DNA of 64,000 bases from a bacterium (GCA_965213625.1 CBDBZU010000004.1:2656001-2720000); one strand, 5' to 3'. Shown: positions 12,547 to 23,429, counted from the first letter of the stretch. Numbers and translations: made by a program. The notes: generated by a model from the letters alone, not told the origin.

Positions 12547-13068
12547 GATTCCCCTTTTTCGGCACAGGCGACCACCATGTCCGCATGACGGTGAATCCTC
12601 CCGTATCGCTCAACGTCGATCATCGTATAACCGGCGCCTGTGCTGACTACGAGTTTGAGGAACTTCCCTTCACTTTTATCTCTTAACTTTGCGTATACGG
12701 CAAACTGAAGCGATTTGCAATTGTCCGAAAATCGGTGGAGCCCGGCCCCGTGCATGCGGTTGGCGAACCAAATGCGGGCAGCTGCGCCCCAGGCTCTACC
12801 CTGTTTCGTTTGTCGGCGAGAGGGAAAGCCGCCCACGGATTTCTCGAGCCGCCCCTTGGATTCTTCACCCGGTGCGGGCGTGTGCCGATGGCAATCGCCT
12901 TTCCTGGAAACACCGCCCGAGCGTGACGCGCCCGGCGTATTGCGCGTCGCCCGAAACGAGACCCCCGCGGTGACTTCCGCGCCCGGCGAGATATGTCCCC
13001 GCAATGCCGGCGCGCCTGGGGAAAGTCTTGCCTCCCGCCTCGAATCGCCGGTGGCAGGCATTGATAAT

Positions 13069-13815
13069 TTACCCGCTGAATGCGCGCGAGGCGAGGTAGG
13101 CGCCCAGCGCAAGGATGGAGAGGAAGAAAATCTTTCGGAACATCTGCTCGGAGAGTTTGCTGCGAATTCGCTGCCCGATGATCATCCCCGCCATCGCCGG
13201 CGCAAGCGCCATGGTGGAAAGGGCGCCGTGCTCGAGCCGCAGCAGGTCGTTGGCCTGAAGCGAGAACGCAAGCGCCAGCGTCGATACCGTGAAGAGCATT
13301 CCCATCGCCTGGATGAGCGCGTCTCTCGAGAGGCCGAGCGCCTGTAGGTACATCACCCCCGGCACGACGAAAGAGCCCGTCATGCCCGTCAGCACCCCGT
13401 TCACGAGTCCGACCAGCGGCCCCGCCCACTTCTCGCGGCGGGCTTCGACCTCGAACCGCAGTCCGAGCAGGTTCGCGGCTGCGTACGCCGCGAGCAGCAG
13501 ACCCAGAAGCGCAGTCAGCAGCGAGAACTCGACGCGCGTCAGCGCGGACGCGCCGAGCCGCACGGTGATCGCCGCCACCAGCAGGAACAGCCAGATCCGC
13601 CGCAGCAGGTCTCGTCCGTTGCCGCCGACCATCGCCTGCCAGACGTTCGTCACGAACGAGGGCACGAGGAGCAGGGCCATCGCGTTCGTCAGGTCGAGCG
13701 CCACCGCCAGGACGGCGAGGCTGACCGTCGGGAGGCCCAGGCCGATGACTCCTTTCACCGCGCCTGCGAGCAGGAAGGTTCCGGCGATTGTGGTGATGGT
13801 GGCGGCGTCGAACAT
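13069..13815 (-). CDS. Sulfite exporter TauE/SafE family protein
   Basis: LAGAVKGVIGLG, GVLTGMTG, about 8 TM; ATG at 13815 chosen as start. Confidence 0.85.
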   Translation of the reverse strand: MFDAATITTIAGTFLLAGAVKGVIGLGLPTVSLAVLAVALDLTNAMALLLVPSFVTNVWQAMVGGNGRDLLRRIWLFLLVAAITVRLGASALTRVEFSLLTALLGLLLAAYAAANLLGLRFEVEARREKWAGPLVGLVNGVLTGMTGSFVVPGVMYLQALGLSRDALIQAMGMLFTVSTLALAFSLQANDLLRLEHGALSTMALAPAMAGMIIGQRIRSKLSEQMFRKIFFLSILALGAYLASRAFSG

Positions 13816-14129
13816 TCCGTTTTTCCCAGGGCAGCGTTCGCAGATGTACCTGCGAGGGTACATTCCCCTGCTCGGGGGATTGTGTCACCACTTCAGTATT
13901 GCACAACAGACACAGCGATTCGATGGGCCGCCATAGTCGAAACCAGCCAATCGGACCGGAGCAAGCTTATACAAAATAATCGAGTGGCTACTTTAGCTGA
14001 GAATACTGCTTTAATTCGATATTGGTCTGGACAATGCGCGTTTTGTGATTATGAGGCCGGTAGCCTACTGAATCTGAGCAAACTGCTTGTTGTCCGGGTC
14101 AGGTATCAGCCGGCAGTTTTCGAATCAAA

Positions 14130-15173
14130 TCAGTCTCTATTGATCACTGCTTCAGCGCTTTGAATCTGCTCGATGATCCACCCGAAATCAGGAATGTCTC
14201 CCAGGATCATGTCCTGCATGGCCCTGTAATCTCTTTCGATCGCCGAGCGCAGTTCCGGTTGCGGCGCCAATCGCACCGAACCGGGGGCGGCCTTATCGAA
14301 CCGTTTCCAGGCCTGCTGAAAAGCGATAAGGTTGTGTTCCCGAACCGCATCCAGAAGAACGATGTTCGTGAGAGCAGACCTTCCGGTTTCGGTCACCGTA
14401 ATCATCGCGGCATCGTAGTAATGACGCGAGATCAAGTCCTTGTCGGTCGGCAAGCGTTTTCCATTTTCGTACCCGTAGCTCAGACCATGCAGGATCAACA
14501 GCTTCTCCCAATAAGTGCGTACCGGCGCGAAGGTTCTGACGCCGCTCACATCGAACGACCATTCAGGCAGAACACTGAAAATGTACGGGCTGACGGAGCA
14601 GGTCAAGTTCGGGTTCAGAGCGGATCTTGCTCCCGCCTCGATCTTCACGCGTGGGGACACGTAGGAAACGTCGCCGCTTGGATACAGGGTGGAATACTCG
14701 ATAAAGAGCGTTTGCCGCCTTTCATCATCCTCGTCCGGCAAGACGCTGCACCCTTCCACCATCTCGTCAATAATACCCATCAGCGACGCTTTCAGATCTC
14801 CCAGAATGTAGTCGCTGCAGGCCCCCGCGAGTTGTTTGAAGAGTGAATTTCGTTTCTTTCTGGATAGGTCTCCTCTGATCGTCGGGTCTCTATCGCCTTC
14901 GAAGCCCAAGCCGTCGCGATGCACCACCAGATCGATGTCCTCGGAGAACCGCTCGATTAGACCGAAGGCTTTGGACAAGGATGTTCCGCCCTTGAAGAGC
15001 AGTTTCGGATGTCCGTCGGGCAATCCGTTGTAGAGCGCATCGAGAACGAAACAGACCCAGAAATCCTTTTCCACGTAGCCGGGCAACGTGCCGAGTCGCT
15101 TCGCCGACGCTTCGAACACATCGCGTTTGTCTTGCTCGGCCAAGGTGAAAAAGGATGCGAATGCTCCCTTCAT
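14130..15173 (-). CDS. AbiEii/AbiGii nucleotidyltransferase toxin (type IV TA)
   Basis: VEKDFWV, FKGGTSLSK, RFSEDIDL, EK, SRHYYD. Confidence 0.92.
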   Translation of the reverse strand: MKGAFASFFTLAEQDKRDVFEASAKRLGTLPGYVEKDFWVCFVLDALYNGLPDGHPKLLFKGGTSLSKAFGLIERFSEDIDLVVHRDGLGFEGDRDPTIRGDLSRKKRNSLFKQLAGACSDYILGDLKASLMGIIDEMVEGCSVLPDEDDERRQTLFIEYSTLYPSGDVSYVSPRVKIEAGARSALNPNLTCSVSPYIFSVLPEWSFDVSGVRTFAPVRTYWEKLLILHGLSYGYENGKRLPTDKDLISRHYYDAAMITVTETGRSALTNIVLLDAVREHNLIAFQQAWKRFDKAAPGSVRLAPQPELRSAIERDYRAMQDMILGDIPDFGWIIEQIQSAEAVINRD

Positions 15174-15790
15174 GAAGCGATGGGCTCATCGGTCGTAATG
15201 CTGCGTGCGAGCGGTTGCGCCCAGCCGGGCAAGTCACGACTGTTTTGTGCCAAGTTGTGTTTTACCGCGTCGGGGAGACGACGCTTCAGAATCGAGGCGA
15301 CCCGGGTGTCGGCGGCTCCAGGGCCGAGCCACCGGAGCGCCTGAAAAACCGGGGCCGCCGCCTTTCCCGCCCAGCGCATGACGCTTGGACTCGCATGCCG
15401 GAACTGGAGCGTTCGTCCGTCAATCTTGATTAAACGCGAGGCGCCATCCGTCACATAGCAAGGTCTGGCAGGAACCGCGTTGGTTAGGCCGAGCTGGTTT
15501 GCGGCCGCCATGCCATCAGGCATGACCCGGATGCCGTCTCTTCGTGCAATTGCTGCGATTGCGGAATCCAGATCGACCGGCGCGGGCTGATTCAGCACAC
15601 CGCTCATCCTCGGCTTGTCGTACAAGCCACGACCGACCCGGCGCAGTCGGCCTGCCTTGGCGAGTCGTGACAATGCTTGGTCGATGGCCTCACGGCTTCC
15701 GATATCCAGAAAATCCCTCGGCGTGCACACCCACCTTACGCCAGCGTTTTCAGATATCCTCTCTATGATCTTATCAGCCATGGAACCCAT
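15170..15790 (-). CDS. AbiEi-like antitoxin (DUF6088)
   Basis: DFLDIGSREAIDQALSRL...RRVGRGLY wHTH, AANQLGLT; ATGA overlap with the toxin; start uncertain (15790 or 15781). Confidence 0.85.
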   Translation of the reverse strand: MGSMADKIIERISENAGVRWVCTPRDFLDIGSREAIDQALSRLAKAGRLRRVGRGLYDKPRMSGVLNQPAPVDLDSAIAAIARRDGIRVMPDGMAAANQLGLTNAVPARPCYVTDGASRLIKIDGRTLQFRHASPSVMRWAGKAAAPVFQALRWLGPGAADTRVASILKRRLPDAVKHNLAQNSRDLPGWAQPLARSITTDEPIAS

Positions 15791-15812
15791 TTGAGTATTC
15801 CTCATCTTCAAA

Positions 15813-15842
15813 TGTCAGAGAATATGCTATGTATATCTGACA
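15813..15842. promoter_or_regulatory. Inverted repeat TGTCAGA-N16-TCTGACA, candidate AbiEi autoregulatory operator
   Basis: Palindrome directly upstream of the antitoxin start. Confidence 0.6.
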
Positions 15843-16144
15843 AATCAACCCTGTTGTTACAATATCGACAAGTTCGCGGCAAACCTTCCCCTATATCGCC
15901 AGCCCCTTCCTCCACAATTGCCAATCATTCTCCCCTCAGTCGACAGTCCGTCCTGAAAAATTCGGAGCAGATCATCCGAAAAAAGAGGTTGACAGAATGG
16001 GCTGTGAGCGTTTATTCAAAAGGTATGAAGGTTAGGGTTTCTTGAGGTTATCTTGCTGGCGCAACACGAGGCCATGGACGAGTTACAAATTAAGAACGTA
16101 CGTCGAACACATCATCCCCTATCGCCCAATGGGAGGATGACATC

Positions 16145-16501
16145 ATGCAGTCAACTCATGTAAAGAGCCGCTCCGCAGTTTCCGGCGCCGCCGATATCCT
16201 CCGTGACGTTTTCGGCGATATGGACTACGGGCTCCGCTTCCGCATGTGGGACGGGACTACGGTATCCGTGGGCCGCGAAGTGCTGCCCCTGGAAATCACG
16301 TTCCCCTCGCTCGATTCTTTCAAACACATACTACTGAATCCCACCGCGGATGCCTTCGCGGAGGCGTATTGCGACTCGGTCATCGATTTCGAGGGCGATC
16401 TGTTCGAGGCCATGAAGGTGGCCGACAGTTTCGAGAATATCGAATTGACCACGATGCAGAAATTCAAGTTGGCCCTTCGCATATGGAAACTCTCGGAATG
16501 A
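16145..16501 (+). CDS. Stand-alone N-terminal (lipid-binding) domain of cyclopropane fatty acid synthase
   Basis: FRMWDG...ILLNP..DAFAEAYCDSVIDFEGDL resembles the Cfa N-domain; GGAGG RBS. Confidence 0.65.
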   Translation: MQSTHVKSRSAVSGAADILRDVFGDMDYGLRFRMWDGTTVSVGREVLPLEITFPSLDSFKHILLNPTADAFAEAYCDSVIDFEGDLFEAMKVADSFENIELTTMQKFKLALRIWKLSE

Positions 16502-17610
16502 GCGTACCGGAAGTCATCGTCGTCGGAGGAGGCCCGGGCGGCAGCACGGCCGCTTGGGAGCTGGCGAAGCGCGGCCGCCGCGTTCTCGTGCTCGATGCGG
16601 CCACGTTCCCGCGCGTGAAACTCTGCGCGGGCTGGGTGACGAAGCAGGTGATGGGCGACCTCGGACTCAGGCCCGATGAATACCCCCACACCATCCAGCC
16701 GTTCCAGAGCGTGTTCGTGGGCTATGACGACAAGCTCCTGGAGACGAGGTGGAGCGAACCCGCGAGCTACGGGATCATCAGAAGCCAGTTCGACACCTGG
16801 CTCTTAAGGCGCGCGCAGGAAGAGGGCGCCGAGGTGCGCGAGGGCGTCAGGGTGCGCGGCGTGGAGAAAACTACAGGCGGAATGCGCGTGGACATAGGGA
16901 GCGAGCAAATCGAGGCTCCCGTCATCATCGGCGCGGGGGGGCATACCTGTCCCGTGGCCAGGACGTTCGGCGACGTGTCGTCAAAAGAATCCGTCGTCCT
17001 GACCCAGGAGAGCGAGACGAACGTGGGCGCCGAGAAACTCCGCGACCTTGCGCCCAACTACGGCTTGCCCGAGTTGTTCGCCGAACCCGACTTCAAGGGG
17101 TATGCCTGGTATTTCACAAAAGGGGATTTTTTGAACATCGGCGTTGGCTGCATCGGCAAGAAGCCGAGCGTCCATGAGCGTCTCGATATTCTGCTCGAAA
17201 AATTCCGCGAGACGGGCAGGCTGCCCGCCAGGATGGAACTCACGAAATTCCGGGGCCACGCCTATTCGGTCCACCGCAGGCACGTCCGGCAGCCTGCGGG
17301 CGATGGCTTCGCCCTGATCGGCGACGCCGCGGGCCTGGCGAAAGATTTCAGCGGAGAGGGCATCGGCCCCGCGGTCCATAGTGCTAAAATGGCGGCGGAG
17401 GCCGCGCACAAGTATCTGGATACGGGTGAGGGCATCGCCGAATACGGCGAGGCGCTCTATGAGAAATACGGAAGTGGCGGGGAAGGGTTGTTCGATAAAT
17501 TGATCGATCGTCTTCCGGATAAGGTTCTTTTCGGCGTGGCGAAGTTCATTTGCGGCAACGCTTGGCTCAGACGCCGGCTGGTTCTGGAAGGCGCATTCGG
17601 AATCGGTTGA
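16498..17610 (+). CDS. Geranylgeranyl reductase family FAD-dependent oxidoreductase
   Basis: VGGGPGG, FPRVKLCAG, RSQFD, GYAWYF, IGDAAG, SGEGI; ATGA overlap with the upstream gene. Confidence 0.88.
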   Translation: MSVPEVIVVGGGPGGSTAAWELAKRGRRVLVLDAATFPRVKLCAGWVTKQVMGDLGLRPDEYPHTIQPFQSVFVGYDDKLLETRWSEPASYGIIRSQFDTWLLRRAQEEGAEVREGVRVRGVEKTTGGMRVDIGSEQIEAPVIIGAGGHTCPVARTFGDVSSKESVVLTQESETNVGAEKLRDLAPNYGLPELFAEPDFKGYAWYFTKGDFLNIGVGCIGKKPSVHERLDILLEKFRETGRLPARMELTKFRGHAYSVHRRHVRQPAGDGFALIGDAAGLAKDFSGEGIGPAVHSAKMAAEAAHKYLDTGEGIAEYGEALYEKYGSGGEGLFDKLIDRLPDKVLFGVAKFICGNAWLRRRLVLEGAFGIG

Positions 17611-17629
17611 ACAAAACAGTGAGGCTGCC

Positions 17630-18547
17630 ATGGTAAAAGAGCGAACAAAAGAATTCGACGCCGAGGCGATTTCGCACCACTACGATCTCTCCAACGAGTT
17701 CTACGAGCAGTTCCTGTGCGAGAACATGCTCTATACATGCGCCTATTACCGCGAACCGGACGGCGACCTCGCCCAGGCGCAGCGCGACAAGATGGACCTC
17801 GTCTGCAGGAAGCTCAGGCTCTCGCCCGGCGAGGACTATCTCGACATCGGTTGCGGGTGGGGTTCGCTGGCGATTTGCGCGGCGAAGCACTACGGCGTGA
17901 ACGCCACCGCCGTCACCCTCTCGCGTGAGCAGGCGAAGTGGGGCCAGGAGTGGGCGCGCCGCGAGGGCATCGACGACAAGTGCGAAATCCACCACATGGA
18001 TTACCGCGATTTCCCCGAAGAGAGGACATTCGACAAGATTTCCGCCATCGGCATCATCGAGCACGTCGGCATTGCGAACTACATGAGCTACTTCACTTCG
18101 GTGAGAAAGCGCCTGCGCGACGGCGGCTTGTTCCTCAACCACGGGATCACGACGAACAAATTCTGGAAACCATCGAGCCAGAACGAATTTCTTCTGCGTA
18201 ACGTCTTCCCCAACGGCGAGATGGACAACATTTCCCACATTCAGGACATCATGGAGCTTGCGCGCTGGGAGATTCTGGACGTGGAGAGTCTGAGACTCCA
18301 CTACGCGCGCACGTGCAAGCACTGGTACGAGAAATTCGAGGAAAACGCCGAACGTATCAAGGAACTCGTCGGCGAGCGTACGTACCGGATTTACCGCATC
18401 TGGCTGGTTTGCTCATCGAACGCGTTTTTCAGCAATTCTCTGGGTCTCTATCAGGTGCTGGCGCAGAAATACGAGTTGGAATACCGCTTCGACCCGCCGA
18501 CACACCGCGAGGGTATTTATAAAGCGTTTCTAGATCAGGATGCCTGA
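17630..18547 (+). CDS. cfa: Cyclopropane-fatty-acyl-phospholipid synthase family SAM methyltransferase (catalytic domain only)
   Basis: ISHHYDLSNEFY, YTCAY, LDIGCGWG, EHVG, LNHGI, HYART. Confidence 0.9.
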   Translation: MVKERTKEFDAEAISHHYDLSNEFYEQFLCENMLYTCAYYREPDGDLAQAQRDKMDLVCRKLRLSPGEDYLDIGCGWGSLAICAAKHYGVNATAVTLSREQAKWGQEWARREGIDDKCEIHHMDYRDFPEERTFDKISAIGIIEHVGIANYMSYFTSVRKRLRDGGLFLNHGITTNKFWKPSSQNEFLLRNVFPNGEMDNISHIQDIMELARWEILDVESLRLHYARTCKHWYEKFEENAERIKELVGERTYRIYRIWLVCSSNAFFSNSLGLYQVLAQKYELEYRFDPPTHREGIYKAFLDQDA

Positions 18548-18571
18548 GCAGCGCCTTCGCATTCGCCCTGT

Positions 18572-19564
18572 ATGAATGCGCGCGCCGCTTCGCTCACCCC
18601 CCAATTCCGGCCGGCCTGGTATTGTCGGGGGCGTCACCTACAAAGCTCATGGGGATATTTTTTTAGGAAGCGCCCGCGCATCCCCTGGCGTCGCGAGCGT
18701 TGGGATACGCCCGACGGCGATTTCCTGGACATCGATTTCCTCGACGCAGACGATTCGGATGCTCCGACGCTGCTCGTCCTGCACGGCCTGGAAGGTTCTG
18801 CCGATTCCCATTACGTACGAGGTGCTGCGGCCAGGGCGCGCACGCTCGGCTGGCGGACGCTGGCGCTCAACTACCGCTCCTGCAGCGGCGAGCCGAACTT
18901 GAAGCCTAAATTCTACCATTGCGGAGAAACGGGGGATCCGGGCTTCGTGACGGGGCGGATTCTGGAGCGGTTCAGCGGGCCGCTTGTGCTGGCGGGTTTT
19001 TCTCTCGGGGGGAACGTGCTCCTCAAGTGGTTGGGAAAATGTGGCAATGGGGTATCAGCGCGCATTCGCGGGGCCGCCTGCATTTCCCCGAGCGTAAACC
19101 CCGCCGCGTGCGCGAAGGTTCTCGACTCCGTCCCGGGTTATTTCTACAGATGGCACCTGCTGAGCAGCGTGAAGGAAAAAGCGGAGCGTTTCGTGAAACT
19201 GCACCCCGGCCTCATCGACATCGAGGGGGTGCGCCGCGCGCGGACCTTTCACCATTATGACCGCCTCGTCATCGCGCCGCTTTATGGCTTCAGGGATGAG
19301 CTGGATTATTACGAACAAGCCGACGCTTCGCCTTATTTGCCTCGAATTCGAGTGAAGACGCTCATCCTCTCGGCGGAAGACGACCCCATCGTGCCGCCCC
19401 ACGTTTTCCCGCACGACCAGGTGGCGGAATCGGAGTGGCTGAGCGGCGTTTTGGTGAAAAATGGCGGACACGTGGGTTTCGTGGCTGGAGGGAACCCCCG
19501 CGCGCCGCTCTTCTGGGCCGAAGAACAAGCGTTCGAGTTTCTGGACGGTTGTCTGCGAGCGTGA
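18572..19564 (+). CDS. YheT-family alpha/beta hydrolase (esterase)
   Basis: TPDGDFLDID, HGLEG, GFSLGG nucleophile, DDP, GGHVGF. Confidence 0.88.
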   Translation: MNARAASLTPQFRPAWYCRGRHLQSSWGYFFRKRPRIPWRRERWDTPDGDFLDIDFLDADDSDAPTLLVLHGLEGSADSHYVRGAAARARTLGWRTLALNYRSCSGEPNLKPKFYHCGETGDPGFVTGRILERFSGPLVLAGFSLGGNVLLKWLGKCGNGVSARIRGAACISPSVNPAACAKVLDSVPGYFYRWHLLSSVKEKAERFVKLHPGLIDIEGVRRARTFHHYDRLVIAPLYGFRDELDYYEQADASPYLPRIRVKTLILSAEDDPIVPPHVFPHDQVAESEWLSGVLVKNGGHVGFVAGGNPRAPLFWAEEQAFEFLDGCLRA

Positions 19565-19843
19565 CGTAGAGACCCGATGCGGGGAATTGCGGTGGGGGTC
19601 AATTTCAGGAGAGGAGAACCTGTTCCCCATTGGCGCGGTTGCGGGCTTCGCACTTGGGCAGCATCGCCAACCGACGAGAGAGAAGAGAACCACTCCCCCC
19701 TTGAGGGGGAGTCGAAGAGGTGAGGGCGTAAGCCCGAAAGCGATTCGGTGGGGGGTATAACTCGGAGTGGCGATAAAACGCGATTCACCCCCCACCGATT
19801 CAGACTTCGCACAAACCGCTCGTCTTCATCGACTCCCCCTCAA

Positions 19844-21363
19844 GGGTCTGTTGAAAAACCCGGTGTTGGAAGCGGGCGTTTTGGCGGCTCACGCGGCGGC
19901 GGGGAGGCAGCCCAATCGGCGCGTGAGGGCGCCATGTGCGCGCAGCCGGCGTCTCCGGGCGGCACAGGCCGTCCACAAGGCGAATATACGCGCCGCAAAA
20001 GCGGCGGCCAGCCGCTTGAGGTTCACCGCTATCGCCGTCAGGTAGGACTGGATCCGCATGTTCGCAAGGCCCCGGCGCACCGCCCGCCCCAGTCCGTGCC
20101 GGCTCTTCGCCTCGCCGTGGTAGCCCTCCGAGCGCCAACGGTGGCGGCCATAGAGACGCTTCTCCTCCTCCCCCCAGCGCGCATGCCACCGACGCGCGCG
20201 CAACAGCGCCGGATACGCGTGCGGAATCAACACCGTCCTGCTCGTGCGCGACTTCGACAGACAATCGGGCCTGAGCGCGCAGCCCGCGCAATCCCGCGTC
20301 TTCGATACATAGGAGCGCCCCCGCTCCGTCGCCTGCCGGGGGCGCAGCGTCTTGCCTCCCGGACACTTCACCACCTCGTTGCGCGCGTCGTAGTGGAACA
20401 ACTGCAGCGGAACACGGCTCTGGCTGGGTTCCTTCTTCGCTGGTATCAGCGCTTCCACGCCCCGCCGCTCCAATTCGCCGTAAACCTTCGAGTACGCGTA
20501 CCCCGAATCCGCCGTCACCATCTCCGGCGTGCGGCCCGACAACTCGCTTACCGCCTCTATATGGGACGCCATCATCTCACGCTCGTTCCGCGTCCCCTCC
20601 GTCACCGACACGTCGAGAACAACACCCCGCTCATCGTCCACCGCCGCGTGCTGCTTGTAGCTCGGCTCGAACCCCGCCCGCGCGCTCTTGCGCGCAAGCC
20701 GCGCGTCCGGGTCCGTCCGGCTCACCGGACCCCCGCCACCGCGGCCTCCTCCCTTCTTCCCGACCTCATCATCGACGGGATTCTCCTGAATCACCTTCTC
20801 CGCGTGGTGCGCCGCCAGGCTCTCCCAGCTCACGTCCGCGCGTATCAACGAGGCGTCCACGTGCACCACTTCCCCCTTCGCCACATTCGCCTCCAGGCAA
20901 GCCTGCACCGTGCGACGGAATATCTCCTTGAACCGTGCCTCCCCCCAGCGCTGACGTATCCGCGTCAGGCTCGAATGATGCGGCAACTCCTCGTGCAGCC
21001 CGTACCCGATGAACCACCGGATCGCCAGGTGCGCACGCGCCTCGCGAAGCAGGCGACGGTCGTGAACGTAGCCCAGCAACATACCCGCCAGCATCAAGCG
21101 GAGCGCCACCTCCGGGTCGATCCCCGGACGACCGTTATCCGCGCAATAGCAATCCGCCACCTCCTCCCGTAGCCAGCTCAAATCCAGTACGTGGTCCACG
21201 CGCATCAGGACGTGATCCTCGGGGATCAGCCGTTCCAGCGAACCGGCCACGAACAAATCCATCTGCTCGCGCCTCTTGCTGCCTATCATCGAGGGAACTC
21301 CCATCTCGGGCGAGATAGTGTCATTACACCCAATCACAATGCCGGGGCTTTTTCAACAGCCCC
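19844..21363 (-). mobile_element. IS1182-family insertion sequence
   Basis: Terminal IRs GGG(T/G)CTGTTGAAAAA at both ends; CTCAA direct repeat at 19839-19843 and 21364-21368. Confidence 0.85.
19889..21289 (-). CDS. IS1182-family DDE transposase
   Basis: LIPEDH, GRPGIDP, PHHSSLTRIR (DUF772), VDAS, ADSGY, RWRSEG, RRGL. Confidence 0.9.
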   Translation of the reverse strand: MIGSKRREQMDLFVAGSLERLIPEDHVLMRVDHVLDLSWLREEVADCYCADNGRPGIDPEVALRLMLAGMLLGYVHDRRLLREARAHLAIRWFIGYGLHEELPHHSSLTRIRQRWGEARFKEIFRRTVQACLEANVAKGEVVHVDASLIRADVSWESLAAHHAEKVIQENPVDDEVGKKGGGRGGGGPVSRTDPDARLARKSARAGFEPSYKQHAAVDDERGVVLDVSVTEGTRNEREMMASHIEAVSELSGRTPEMVTADSGYAYSKVYGELERRGVEALIPAKKEPSQSRVPLQLFHYDARNEVVKCPGGKTLRPRQATERGRSYVSKTRDCAGCALRPDCLSKSRTSRTVLIPHAYPALLRARRWHARWGEEEKRLYGRHRWRSEGYHGEAKSRHGLGRAVRRGLANMRIQSYLTAIAVNLKRLAAAFAARIFALWTACAARRRRLRAHGALTRRLGCLPAAA

Positions 21364-21439
21364 CTCAAGGGGGGAGTGGTTGTTGGGGGCTCTGCAAGGG
21401 GAGAACGGTTTAGCGCGATCCGTAAGGGCTTTTTCTTGC

Positions 21440-21626
21440 CCCCCTGACAAGGGGGGGGGTAGGGGGGGTTGGTTTTCAAGGCAGGGGGAGGACGAGCGGG
21501 GCGGCTTTTTCAACAACCCCTCCTCGGGGTTGTCCCACAGTTCGCGAACCTCGGACAGGCCTCCGTGCCTGTCCGAGGTTTCCGCGTCTGTTTTGACGAA
21601 GGACAACCACGGAGGGATGTCCCTAC
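21440..21626. repeat. Cluster of GC-rich REP-like hairpins
   Basis: CCCCC-TGACAA-GGGGG, ACAACCCC..GGGGTTGT, CCTCGGACAGGC..GCCTGTCCGAGG, and a minus-strand GTAGGGACA..TGTCC. Confidence 0.55.
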
Positions 21627-21714
21627 AAAACCGTCGCGCCCCCACGAGGGCTCCCTCCCCACCGTTGCGTGAAAGGCTGTATGACGCGCGTCGACGTTGC
21701 AAAGGGGTTAGCGA

Positions 21715-22809
21715 TCAGGCGCTTCTGTCGTATTCCCTGAGCCTGAGTTTCTCGTGGCGCGCCATTGCGCAGCCGATGAGCCGATCCAGCATTTCGGGGT
21801 AGGAGACGCCCGCCGCCTGGATCATCCGGGGGTATCCGCTCAACTGCGTGAAGCCGGGCAGGGTGTTTACCTCGTTGATGTAGGTTTCCCCCGTCCGTTC
21901 GCGGTAGAAGAAATCCACGCGGGCGAGTCCCGAACAGCCGAGTGCGCTGAACGCGCCCCGCGCGTAGTGGCGGGCGTGATCGGCGAGGGATTCCTCCACC
22001 GGAGCCGGGATAATCAATTCAGCGCGGCCTTCCTCGTATTTCGCCTCGTAGTCGTACCAGCCCGTATGCGTCGTAATCTCCATGAGCGGACTGGCGAGGA
22101 ATTCTCCGAGTGAAGGGCCTTCGAGTACGGAACACTCCAGTTCGCGTCCCTGCGCGTGCTCTTCTATCAAAACCTTGCTGTCGAAGCGGAAGGCGTCTGC
22201 GACCGCGTCGTGAAGATCGTCAGGACTCTCCACCAGGTGGACGCCGACGCTGCTGCCTGAGGATGAGGGTTTGACGAACAGGGGATACCCTATTTTGGCG
22301 GCGGCTTCTTCAGAAACGGCGTCGCGGTCCGCACCCCAAGTTTCGGGAAACAGCGTGAGCGACGGCAGAACGGGCAGTCCTGCCGCGCGCAGCACCGCCT
22401 TGGCGACGGTCTTGTCCATCGTGACGGCGGAGGAAGCGCACCCCGAACCCACGAAGGGGACTTCCGCCAGTTCGAACAGTCCCTGCAGCGTGCCGTCTTC
22501 CCCGAATGTGCCGTGAATGATGGGGAAGAATACGTCGATATCGAGAGGCTCATCCCTTCCGGCGTACCTGAGCGGCCGCCCGTTCGGCGTGCCCGAGAAG
22601 AGAACCTCTTCGCCGTCATCAGGCGGCGCATCCGGGGCGGGGAGGGCGATCCAGGCGCCCGATTTCGTGATCAGGAGGGGATGGACGTCGTATTTCTCTG
22701 TGTCGAGTTCCGCCATGATGGCCCGGCCCGAGTTCCGGCTCACCTCGTGCTCGGTCGAGCGGCCGCCGAACACGACGCCGACGCTTGTCTTTTGGGACGG
22801 TGACGCCAT
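21715..22809 (-). CDS. ddl: D-alanine--D-alanine ligase
   Basis: FGGRSTEHEVS, HGTFGEDG, FVKP..GSSVG, YDYEAKY, NEVNTLPGFT. Confidence 0.95.
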   Translation of the reverse strand: MASPSQKTSVGVVFGGRSTEHEVSRNSGRAIMAELDTEKYDVHPLLITKSGAWIALPAPDAPPDDGEEVLFSGTPNGRPLRYAGRDEPLDIDVFFPIIHGTFGEDGTLQGLFELAEVPFVGSGCASSAVTMDKTVAKAVLRAAGLPVLPSLTLFPETWGADRDAVSEEAAAKIGYPLFVKPSSSGSSVGVHLVESPDDLHDAVADAFRFDSKVLIEEHAQGRELECSVLEGPSLGEFLASPLMEITTHTGWYDYEAKYEEGRAELIIPAPVEESLADHARHYARGAFSALGCSGLARVDFFYRERTGETYINEVNTLPGFTQLSGYPRMIQAAGVSYPEMLDRLIGCAMARHEKLRLREYDRSA

Positions 22810-22862
22810 TTTCGGCGAATCCTTCCTCGGTGCGTGCGAAGCGTTTCAGGTGGGCGTGGGAG

Positions 22863-23429
22863 TTAACGTATCAGTTTCGAGAGGAATTTGAAATCCTCGG
22901 TGCCCGCCACGCGGAGCAATTCGAAGAGCGCCTGCTCGGTCGTGGCGGGAATGGCGCCTGCGCGCTCCAGCGCCGATAGGCCCGTCCGCCAGTTCAGCTT
23001 CGAGCGCGAGCAGGTGGCGTCGGCCACCGCGTGGACGATGAAGCCGTTATCCAGCAGGTCGAGCGCCGTCTGGTAGCAGCACACGTGCGTCTCTGCACCC
23101 GTGAGCAGTATCTTCGTCCTGCCCGTCTCGTGCAGGCGGGGCAGGAACGTCTCCTCCGCGCAGCAGCTGAACGCGATTTTCTCGATGGGAGTAAACCCGG
23201 GTACCTTCTCCGCCACCGCTTCGACGGTGGGGCCTAGTCCCTTGGGGTATTGTTCGGTGACGAGTACCGGGAAACCGAGGCGCGTCGCCGTCTCCGCCAG
23301 CGTCAATATGCGGTCGACGACTTGGGCGCGCACGTCTTCCTGCATGACGGACATGAGCCGCTCCTGCGCGTCGACGATGAGCAGGAGGCAGTCTTCGGGA
23401 TCGAGCCTGAAAGAATCGATGTCCGGCAT
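22863..23429 (-). CDS. Isochorismatase family hydrolase
   Basis: VDAQERL, TEQYPKGLG, K.AFSC, ETHVCCYQT. Confidence 0.9.
   Translation of the reverse strand: MPDIDSFRLDPEDCLLLIVDAQERLMSVMQEDVRAQVVDRILTLAETATRLGFPVLVTEQYPKGLGPTVEAVAEKVPGFTPIEKIAFSCCAEETFLPRLHETGRTKILLTGAETHVCCYQTALDLLDNGFIVHAVADATCSRSKLNWRTGLSALERAGAIPATTEQALFELLRVAGTEDFKFLSKLIR

Follow-up and report, generated by a model that had tools for sequence, protein, structure and literature searches.

What would a bacterium do with a cyclopropane-fatty-acid synthase (Cfa) whose two domains are encoded by separate genes, one on either side of a gene for a flavoprotein of the geranylgeranyl reductase (GGR) family? The question is raised by a cluster at positions 16145-19564 of a 64,000-nucleotide stretch of bacterial DNA (GCA_965213625.1, CBDBZU010000004.1:2656001-2720000; hereafter the window), in which genes for a Cfa N-domain, a GGR-type reductase, a Cfa-like catalytic domain and a YheT-like hydrolase follow each other on one strand (Table 1). 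The initial annotation, made from the sequence of the window, had proposed a new pathway for methyl-branched lipids. We found that the split layout is genuine and conserved, and that it represents an undescribed gene architecture for a candidate pathway that is already known. Methylase and reductase had been paired in print in 2021 under the name tmp operon (Blitzblau et al, 2021; PMC7791843), so the pathway is not new. In our view, the cluster is probably a tmpBA-type operon with a split methylase gene, which serves to methylate unsaturated membrane fatty acids in mid-chain. No description of the split layout and no papers mentioning DUF7884 or PF25371 were found in the literature searched.

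Blitzblau et al (2021) arrived at the tmp operon through a survey of 10-methyl-palmitate producers. The Cfa-like protein TmpB yielded 10-methylene palmitate in E. coli for four of five operons, with conversions of palmitoleate of 70% for the Thiohalospira enzyme, 45% for that of Marinobacter, 31.5% for that of D. postgatei and 11.8% for that of Desulfobacula. Its partner TmpA, a putative reductase similar to archaeal GGRs, was inactive in E. coli and yeast, and is not homologous to BfaA, the flavoprotein of the actinomycete route to such lipids (PMC7791843). That a GGR-type flavoprotein takes the place of BfaA is therefore a published, though unproven, proposal.

The split gene order is conserved and its genes are under purifying selection

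The four open reading frames (ORFs) of the initial annotation were all recovered at their positions, spaced in order by -4, 19 and 24 nt. The first value corresponds to the described 4-nt ATGA overlap between the stop of the N-domain gene and the ATG of the reductase gene, which lies within GAATGAGC. GGAGG is found 5' of the ATG of the N-domain gene. The genome (4.15 Mb, 4 contigs) holds a single strong CMAS gene and a single DUF7884 gene, both in this cluster. A contig from an RNA library (95-99% identical) covers 17381-17758, crossing the reductase stop and the catalytic start, which is a weak hint at co-transcription; RNA run X1 gave only two short contigs on the region and run X6 no cover.

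Scanning with a reductase profile, one genome per species, returned 80 loci. The order N-domain, reductase, catalytic domain, as separate ORFs, was present in all 12 foreign loci whose reductase is at least 46% identical to that of the window (in one, L014, the contig ends within the catalytic gene). These loci are labelled Tectomicrobia, Nitrospinaceae, Binatia (3), Rokubacteria (3), Methylomirabilota, 'Proteobacteria', 'delta proteobacterium' and, for a metagenome-assembled genome (MAG), 'Nitrosocosmicus'. The same order was found in 29 of the 30 loci fetched from the genome's own family, the remaining one being cut by a contig end. Such an arrangement is far beyond chance, and its wide conservation contradicts the possibility, raised at the outset, that it might be unique to this genome.

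Two of the foreign loci deserve comment. The split cluster on the contig assigned to the archaeon Candidatus Nitrosocosmicus (L018) groups with Rokubacteria in both trees described below, and this is probably a mis-binned bacterial contig. The reductase frame of the Tectomicrobia locus (L009:4473-7058) stays open to 7058 and overlaps the catalytic gene in another frame. This MAG has a 363-aa protein on record, and the long frame may reflect misassembly or a high GC content that leaves the frame open.

Our sample of the genome's own phylum comprised 51 genomes, 41 from its own family (f1) and 10 from other families. Reductase and catalytic domain were each found in 40 of the 41 f1 genomes and the N-domain in 39. 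The extra N-domain miss concerns a 67%-complete genome whose contig begins inside the reductase gene, and one 97%-complete genome carries none of the three genes. All three were also not found in any of the 10 genomes of the other families. Thus, the three genes are gained and lost together. They are also under purifying selection, with pairwise median ratios of non-synonymous to synonymous substitution (dN/dS) within the own family of 0.094 for the catalytic domain, 0.120 for the reductase and 0.276 for the N-domain (22 sequences).

The gene junctions are conserved as well. The N-domain gene overlaps the reductase start, or is separated from it by at most 28 nt, in 12 of 12 foreign split loci, and the junction is tight in the own genus too; the junction between reductase and catalytic genes is equally tight in the split loci. 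From this spacing, the three genes are predicted to be translationally coupled.

These results bear on the idea that a cfa gene was simply broken by insertion of the reductase gene, leaving two decaying halves. An insertion sequence and a toxin-antitoxin pair do flank the cluster in this genome. However, the insertion sequence is absent in relatives, loci under several phylum-level labels have kept the ORFs intact, the three dN/dS values all stay well under 1, and the split traces to a single old clade (see below), so that we find this explanation barely credible. The view that both halves are intact, each with its own start, is thereby upheld.

The gene is split in the interdomain linker

The catalytic protein matches the complete CMAS domain of Pfam (PF02353, E 3.1e-87, positions 4-273 of 273), and its coverage of the NCBIfam model CfaB starts only at position 97 (97-393 of 393), in agreement with the annotation of this gene as lacking its N-domain. 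The N-domain protein matches DUF7884 (E 6.4e-7, 29.9 bits, cut-off 27) and covers positions 5-82 of CfaB. The missing part is thus supplied by the first ORF. When the two proteins were projected onto seven fused ORFs with BLASTP matches to both, the end of the N-domain and the start of the catalytic domain overlapped by 3-11 residues, which places the break in the interdomain linker with nothing lost.

In other loci, a full-length Cfa-like gene lies beside the reductase gene, upstream of it in 36, which is the order known from published tmp operons (tmpB, tmpA), and downstream in 4 of the Kofleriaceae type. One fused protein of 405 aa (P0236), comprising N-domain and catalytic domain, nests within the split clade beside a Binatia locus; the domains may therefore have been re-fused, or the split may have occurred more than once. 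A further arrangement was seen in Thiohalomonas (L042:6274-7533), where a second Cfa-like gene lies 3' of the reductase gene and groups beside E. coli Cfa, not with the TmpB-like copy. A 'Cfa, reductase, Cfa' layout thus exists, and the split layout could arise from it by losing parts.

The split loci are probably related to tmp operons

The window carries the pairing by which tmpBA operons are recognised, a Cfa-like methylase gene adjacent to a gene for a GGR-like flavoprotein. Relationships were assessed with quick IQ-TREE trees (LG+G4, with support from the SH-like approximate likelihood ratio test, SH-aLRT, only), from which 22 of the 30 own-family loci, being near-copies, and two loci with short matches were omitted. 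Reductases linked to Cfa form one clade of 66 rows (SH-aLRT 99), apart from 21 GGR relatives without a Cfa neighbour. An adjacent Cfa-like gene accompanies 60 of the 66 clade members and none of the 21 outgroup GGRs (the contig-cut L014 would raise 60 to 61, and L022 is cut as well). The split loci form one subclade of the reductases (SH-aLRT 99). Likewise, the catalytic tree, for which E. coli Cfa was the only root sequence, unites the 20 split rows in a single clade (SH-aLRT 99), whose sister group consists of 31 fused rows of the order 'Cfa then reductase', including the Thiohalomonas locus (joint branch 100); a group from Desulfobacteraceae, Kofleriaceae and Chloroflexota lies nearer the root.

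In these trees, proteins from Thiohalomonas and Desulfobacteraceae MAGs stand in for the experimentally tested TmpA and TmpB. Visual comparison with the published sequences shows a close resemblance of the Thiohalospira TmpB to the Thiohalomonas protein, and a resemblance of the Desulfobacula TmpB to its Desulfobacteraceae counterpart; also by eye, TmpB and TmpA of Thiohalospira and Marinobacter (supplement 3 of PMC7791843) resemble the sister clade and share motifs with the proteins of the window. If these placements are right, the tested methylene-forming enzymes bracket the split clade. No protein named Thiohalospira or Marinobacter was among those listed from the search with the Thiohalomonas TmpB-like protein, and four short motifs run against 557 stored proteins did not find the proteins of these organisms. 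Overall, the pathway logic of the initial annotation, a Cfa-like methylase working with a methylene reductase of GGR type and not of BfaA type, fits the distribution of Cfa neighbours, and it is the novelty of this logic that has to be given up.

The catalytic domain keeps the bicarbonate-ligand positions of Cfa

The catalytic protein is 36% identical to residues 119-369 of E. coli Cfa, and its C37, E144, H171, I173 and Y225 align with C139, E239, H266, I268 and Y317 of that enzyme. We take C139 and I268 to count among the bicarbonate-ligand positions. E239, H266 and Y317 are bicarbonate ligands of E. coli Cfa (PMC11387697), and the reading of these positions as retained was therefore correct for E144, H171 and Y225.

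An enzyme with retained ligands and a full CMAS domain, nearly as similar to E. coli Cfa as to a TmpB-like protein, could be an ordinary cyclopropane fatty acid synthase that happens to be split. Its GGR-type neighbour would then have an unrelated role and might saturate, for instance, a quinone or polyprenyl chain, as could be suspected from its passing a general GGR model and from the source labels of its homologs, 'menaquinone-9 beta-reductase' or 'geranylgeranyl reductase family protein'. We regard this as unlikely. Ligand retention is no clue to the product, since the supplement of PMC7791843 marks the same residues as conserved in the methylene-forming BfaB. An unrelated reductase is also difficult to reconcile with the contrast between 60 of 66 and 0 of 21 in Cfa neighbours, and with three genes that are gained and lost together and predicted to be translationally coupled. 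Moreover, if the visual placement given above is right, the sister clade holds enzymes of the kind for which methylene and not cyclopropane products have been demonstrated.

The reductase resembles archaeal geranylgeranyl reductases

The reductase passes the family model TIGR02032 (166.7 bits against a cut-off of 158.8) and falls below the cut-off of Pfam GGR_cat (PF22578; 19.9 against 27 bits). Its listed Pfam and NCBIfam matches are of the GGR/FAD_binding_3 type only, and the BfaA flavoprotein family was not found among its 13 Pfam matches or the 25 listed of its 68 NCBIfam matches. Its best solved relative is 3oz2 (E 1.2e-14), and the alignment pairs VVGGGPGGS, C43 and GYAWYFTKG with the corresponding segments of 3oz2. 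We take these to be the GxGxxG motif for flavin adenine dinucleotide (FAD), the conserved Cys and the aromatic Y.W.F.K segment of archaeal GGRs. The protein is 41% identical to the reductase encoded beside a fused Cfa-like gene in the Thiohalomonas MAG.

Homology to GGRs leaves room for a flavin step that follows methylation without being a reduction, such as isomerisation or desaturation, which would give methyl-branched unsaturated or further modified fatty acids. The chemistry of this fold is varied, and the matches of the reductase in PDB and NCBIfam include halogenases and hydroxylases. Neither in E. coli nor in yeast was any reduction by TmpA observed (PMC7791843), and Methylomirabilis is reported to contain 10MeC16:1D7 in addition to 10MeC16:0 (PMC6581649). 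Nevertheless, the tmpBA organisms of Table S2 in PMC7791843 make saturated 10Me16 acids. The closest characterised relatives of the window protein by sequence are reductases of C=C bonds (3oz2 and 3atq, with TIGR02032 above cut-off), and the Cys and Y.W.F.KG segments of GGRs align. A reaction other than reduction therefore seems to us rather improbable.

The free N-domain matches the N-termini of fused Cfa-like proteins

The best-conserved segment of the N-domain, FAEAY..ID.EGD, aligns weakly in its FAEAY..ID part with residues 34-68 of E. coli Cfa (hhalign probability 20%, E 0.0011). This range includes Leu57-Trp68, the interface segment that touches the catalytic domain of E. coli Cfa (PMC11387697), so the matched segment corresponds to the part that contacts the catalytic domain. 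Of 42 fused Cfa-like ORFs adjoining GGR genes, 29 were matched at their N-termini by a profile built from 13 free N-domains (E 4e-4 to 2e-13). Among 1.84 billion representative proteins, searching by profile gave 1757 matches with E up to 0.001. Short proteins (up to 135 aa) made up 35 of the best 50 matches and 62 of the best 150. By BLASTP, 109 of the best 150 consist of the N-domain only, 39 also carry catalytic sequence and two also carry reductase sequence. The latter two were considered as natural N-domain-reductase fusions that might indicate contact, and were rejected as artefacts for their frameshift-like or deleted stretches. At NCBI, the cluster of the window N-domain is labelled 'hypothetical protein', from organisms named Nitrospinae or Nitrospinota bacterium, and its neighbours are labelled 'NAD(P)/FAD-dependent oxidoreductase' and 'class I SAM-dependent methyltransferase'.

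As the N-domain gene overlaps or nearly abuts the start of the reductase gene in every foreign split locus and in the own genus, the free N-domain might by now be a membrane or lipid subunit of the reductase. The catalytic domain would then act alone, like the mycobacterial CmaA enzymes, which have no N-domain; about 10% of the cyclopropane fatty acid synthase (CFAS) family are small proteins, most of them without an N-domain, and separate N-domain genes are not mentioned in that paper (PMC11387697). Against this, the junction between reductase and catalytic genes is just as tight, the conserved N-domain segment corresponds to the catalytic-domain contact region of E. coli Cfa, and the two apparent fusions look frameshifted or deleted. 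Mirror-tree analysis of the three proteins at 39 loci gave correlations of 0.91-0.95 for all distance matrices. The partial correlation was 0.43 between N-domain and catalytic domain and 0.26 between N-domain and reductase, which is weak evidence for which there is no valid significance test. We hold a role as reductase subunit to be quite improbable.

Proposed function and points against it

Our preferred reading, that of a tmpBA-type operon with a split methylase gene, would work as follows. The 118-aa N-domain and the 305-aa catalytic protein would assemble non-covalently into a TmpB-like enzyme dependent on S-adenosylmethionine (SAM). This enzyme would act on cis-monounsaturated phospholipid acyl chains and leave an exomethylene group, whose C=C bond the TmpA-like flavoprotein would then reduce to a methyl branch, as in 10-methyl-16:0. 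The YheT-like hydrolase would be a lineage-specific addition.

Several points weigh against this proposal. Concerning the catalytic domain, the NCBIfam cut-offs for Cfa equivalogs are missed (251.6 against 400 bits for PRK11705 and 317.8 against 650 for CfaB). It is barely nearer to the catalytic part of the Thiohalomonas TmpB-like protein (38% identity) than to E. coli Cfa (36%), so that its product is read from tree position only, in quick trees with a single outgroup sequence. Visual comparison and a few short motifs, not computation, gave the placement of the tested TmpA and TmpB. Concerning assembly, making E. coli Cfa as two separate domains greatly lowered its activity (PMC11387697), and assembly in trans is therefore not to be presumed. 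Concerning the reduction, no TmpA is known to have displayed reductase activity (PMC7791843). DNA may be present in the RNA library behind the contig that crosses the reductase-catalytic junction. Finally, we found no split form in a cultured organism with a known lipid profile, and no protein named for Methylomirabilis oxyfera among the 120 matches listed from the Methylomirabilota locus.

The initial annotation had gone a step further and cast the free N-domain as a shared subunit. An extended form of this idea is that a detachable lipid-extracting subunit would hand the same acyl chain from the methylase to the reductase, the split having been fixed because a single small protein could then serve both enzymes. 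This we consider speculative and improbable. If it were true, mid-chain methyl-branched fatty acids in abundant uncultured lineages, namely Rokubacteria, Binatia, Tectomicrobia and Nitrospinota-labelled bacteria, would have their genetic origin in the split clade.

Mid-chain methyl-branched acids are in use as lipid markers specific for bacteria (PMC8826442), and 10MeC16:0 is regarded as characteristic of Methylomirabilis (PMC6581649). With a conserved candidate pathway in genomes labelled Rokubacteria, Binatia, Tectomicrobia, Methylomirabilota and Nitrospinota, more lineages would have to be considered as possible producers. Since a linker split that cripples E. coli Cfa is kept under selection here, the locus also offers a ready system for studying the lipid-binding domain. 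In addition, the split clade supplies many new TmpA-like proteins for tests of the unproven reductase step of the tmp pathway.

Hydrolase and neighbouring elements

The hydrolase is nearest to YheT (PRK10985, E 7.9e-62), its 209.4 bits lying below the cut-off of 267. It matches the alpha/beta hydrolase fold (Abhydrolase_1, E 4.4e-11), and no solved relative was found at E 1e-5. Its gene lies 3' of the three-gene core in 23 of the 30 own-family loci and in the Tectomicrobia locus, and was not found in the other 11 foreign split loci. In some genomes of the same genus (L120/G014, L095-L097), 260-500 extra bases separate the catalytic and YheT-like genes, compared with 24 in the window.

Table 1. 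Coordinates of the gene cluster and of the elements beside it, counted from the first nucleotide of the window.
Feature	Position	Strand	Details
AbiEii/AbiEi toxin-antitoxin pair, outside the system	14130-15811	-	AbiEii E 2.6e-33; DUF6088 and AbiEi_4
Cfa N-domain gene	16145-16501	+	118 aa; DUF7884
Geranylgeranyl-reductase-family flavoprotein gene, TmpA-like	16498-17610	+	370 aa; TIGR02032
TmpB/Cfa-like SAM-dependent catalytic domain gene, without N-domain	17630-18547	+	305 aa; Pfam CMAS
YheT-like alpha/beta hydrolase gene	18572-19564	+	330 aa; PRK10985 nearest
Insertion sequence, outside the system	19688-21381	-	DDE transposase 19889-21337; Pfam DUF772, DDE_Tnp_1_6, DDE_Tnp_1

The insertion sequence is bounded by perfect 22-nt inverted repeats (19688-19709 and 21360-21381). 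It sits between the hydrolase gene and ddl, and is absent there in two genomes of the same genus. The AbiE pair 5' of the operon is present in one same-genus genome (G014, about 80% identity) and absent in another (G023). The Nitrospinaceae locus shares the downstream genes for ddl, isochorismatase and 2-hydroxyacid dehydrogenase, and no flanking genes beyond the three-gene core were found to be conserved across phyla. Given the variable mobile elements and these shared downstream genes, we conclude that the cluster is old chromosomal content, beside which the mobile elements are recent.

None of the five antisense ORFs of the region had a Pfam match, no Rfam family was found in 13000-23000, and the number of sites in a promoter and terminator scan was not above that in shuffled sequence. 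Elsewhere in the genome, contig 4 carries three sterol-methyltransferase-like genes at 1351941-1360987 (L002-L004; Sterol_MT_C, E 1e-15 to 3e-23, with class I methyltransferase domains), which is unusual for a bacterium; a Rieske/KshA_C-like oxygenase gene adjoins one of them.

Comparison with known systems

Archaeal digeranylgeranylglycerophospholipid reductases and GGRs (3oz2, 3atq) share the fold family of the reductase by sequence, with the FAD motif, Cys and Y.W.F.KG segment aligned. The relation is at an E of 1e-14, and the context in the window is a fatty-acid methylase, not isoprenoid lipid synthesis. E. coli Cfa (PDB 6bqc) has a homologous N-domain and 36% identity in the catalytic domain, and the window protein retains its bicarbonate ligands and 341-361 helix region. 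However, it is one chain with a flexible linker and makes a cyclopropane product, whereas the N-domain of the window is on a separate ORF. The BfaA/BfaB (TmsA/TmsB) system of actinomycetes follows the same two-step logic of a 10-methylene intermediate and then a flavoprotein (Machida et al, 2017, PMC5660069; Blitzblau et al, 2021), but its flavoprotein belongs to a separate family without meaningful homology to TmpA.

Finally, the tmpBA operons of Desulfobacter, Desulfobacula, Marinobacter hydrocarbonoclasticus and Thiohalospira halophila consist of a full-length tmpB followed by tmpA, whereas the window has N-domain, reductase and catalytic domain as three ORFs; its lineage adds a YheT-like hydrolase, and the hosts of the split form are uncultured lineages. 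Like the window, the tmpBA operons combine a Cfa-like SAM-dependent methylase with a GGR-like flavoprotein. The reductase of the window falls in the Cfa-linked clade, and the sister group of the split catalytic domains is the fused clade, which by eye includes the Thiohalospira/Marinobacter type.

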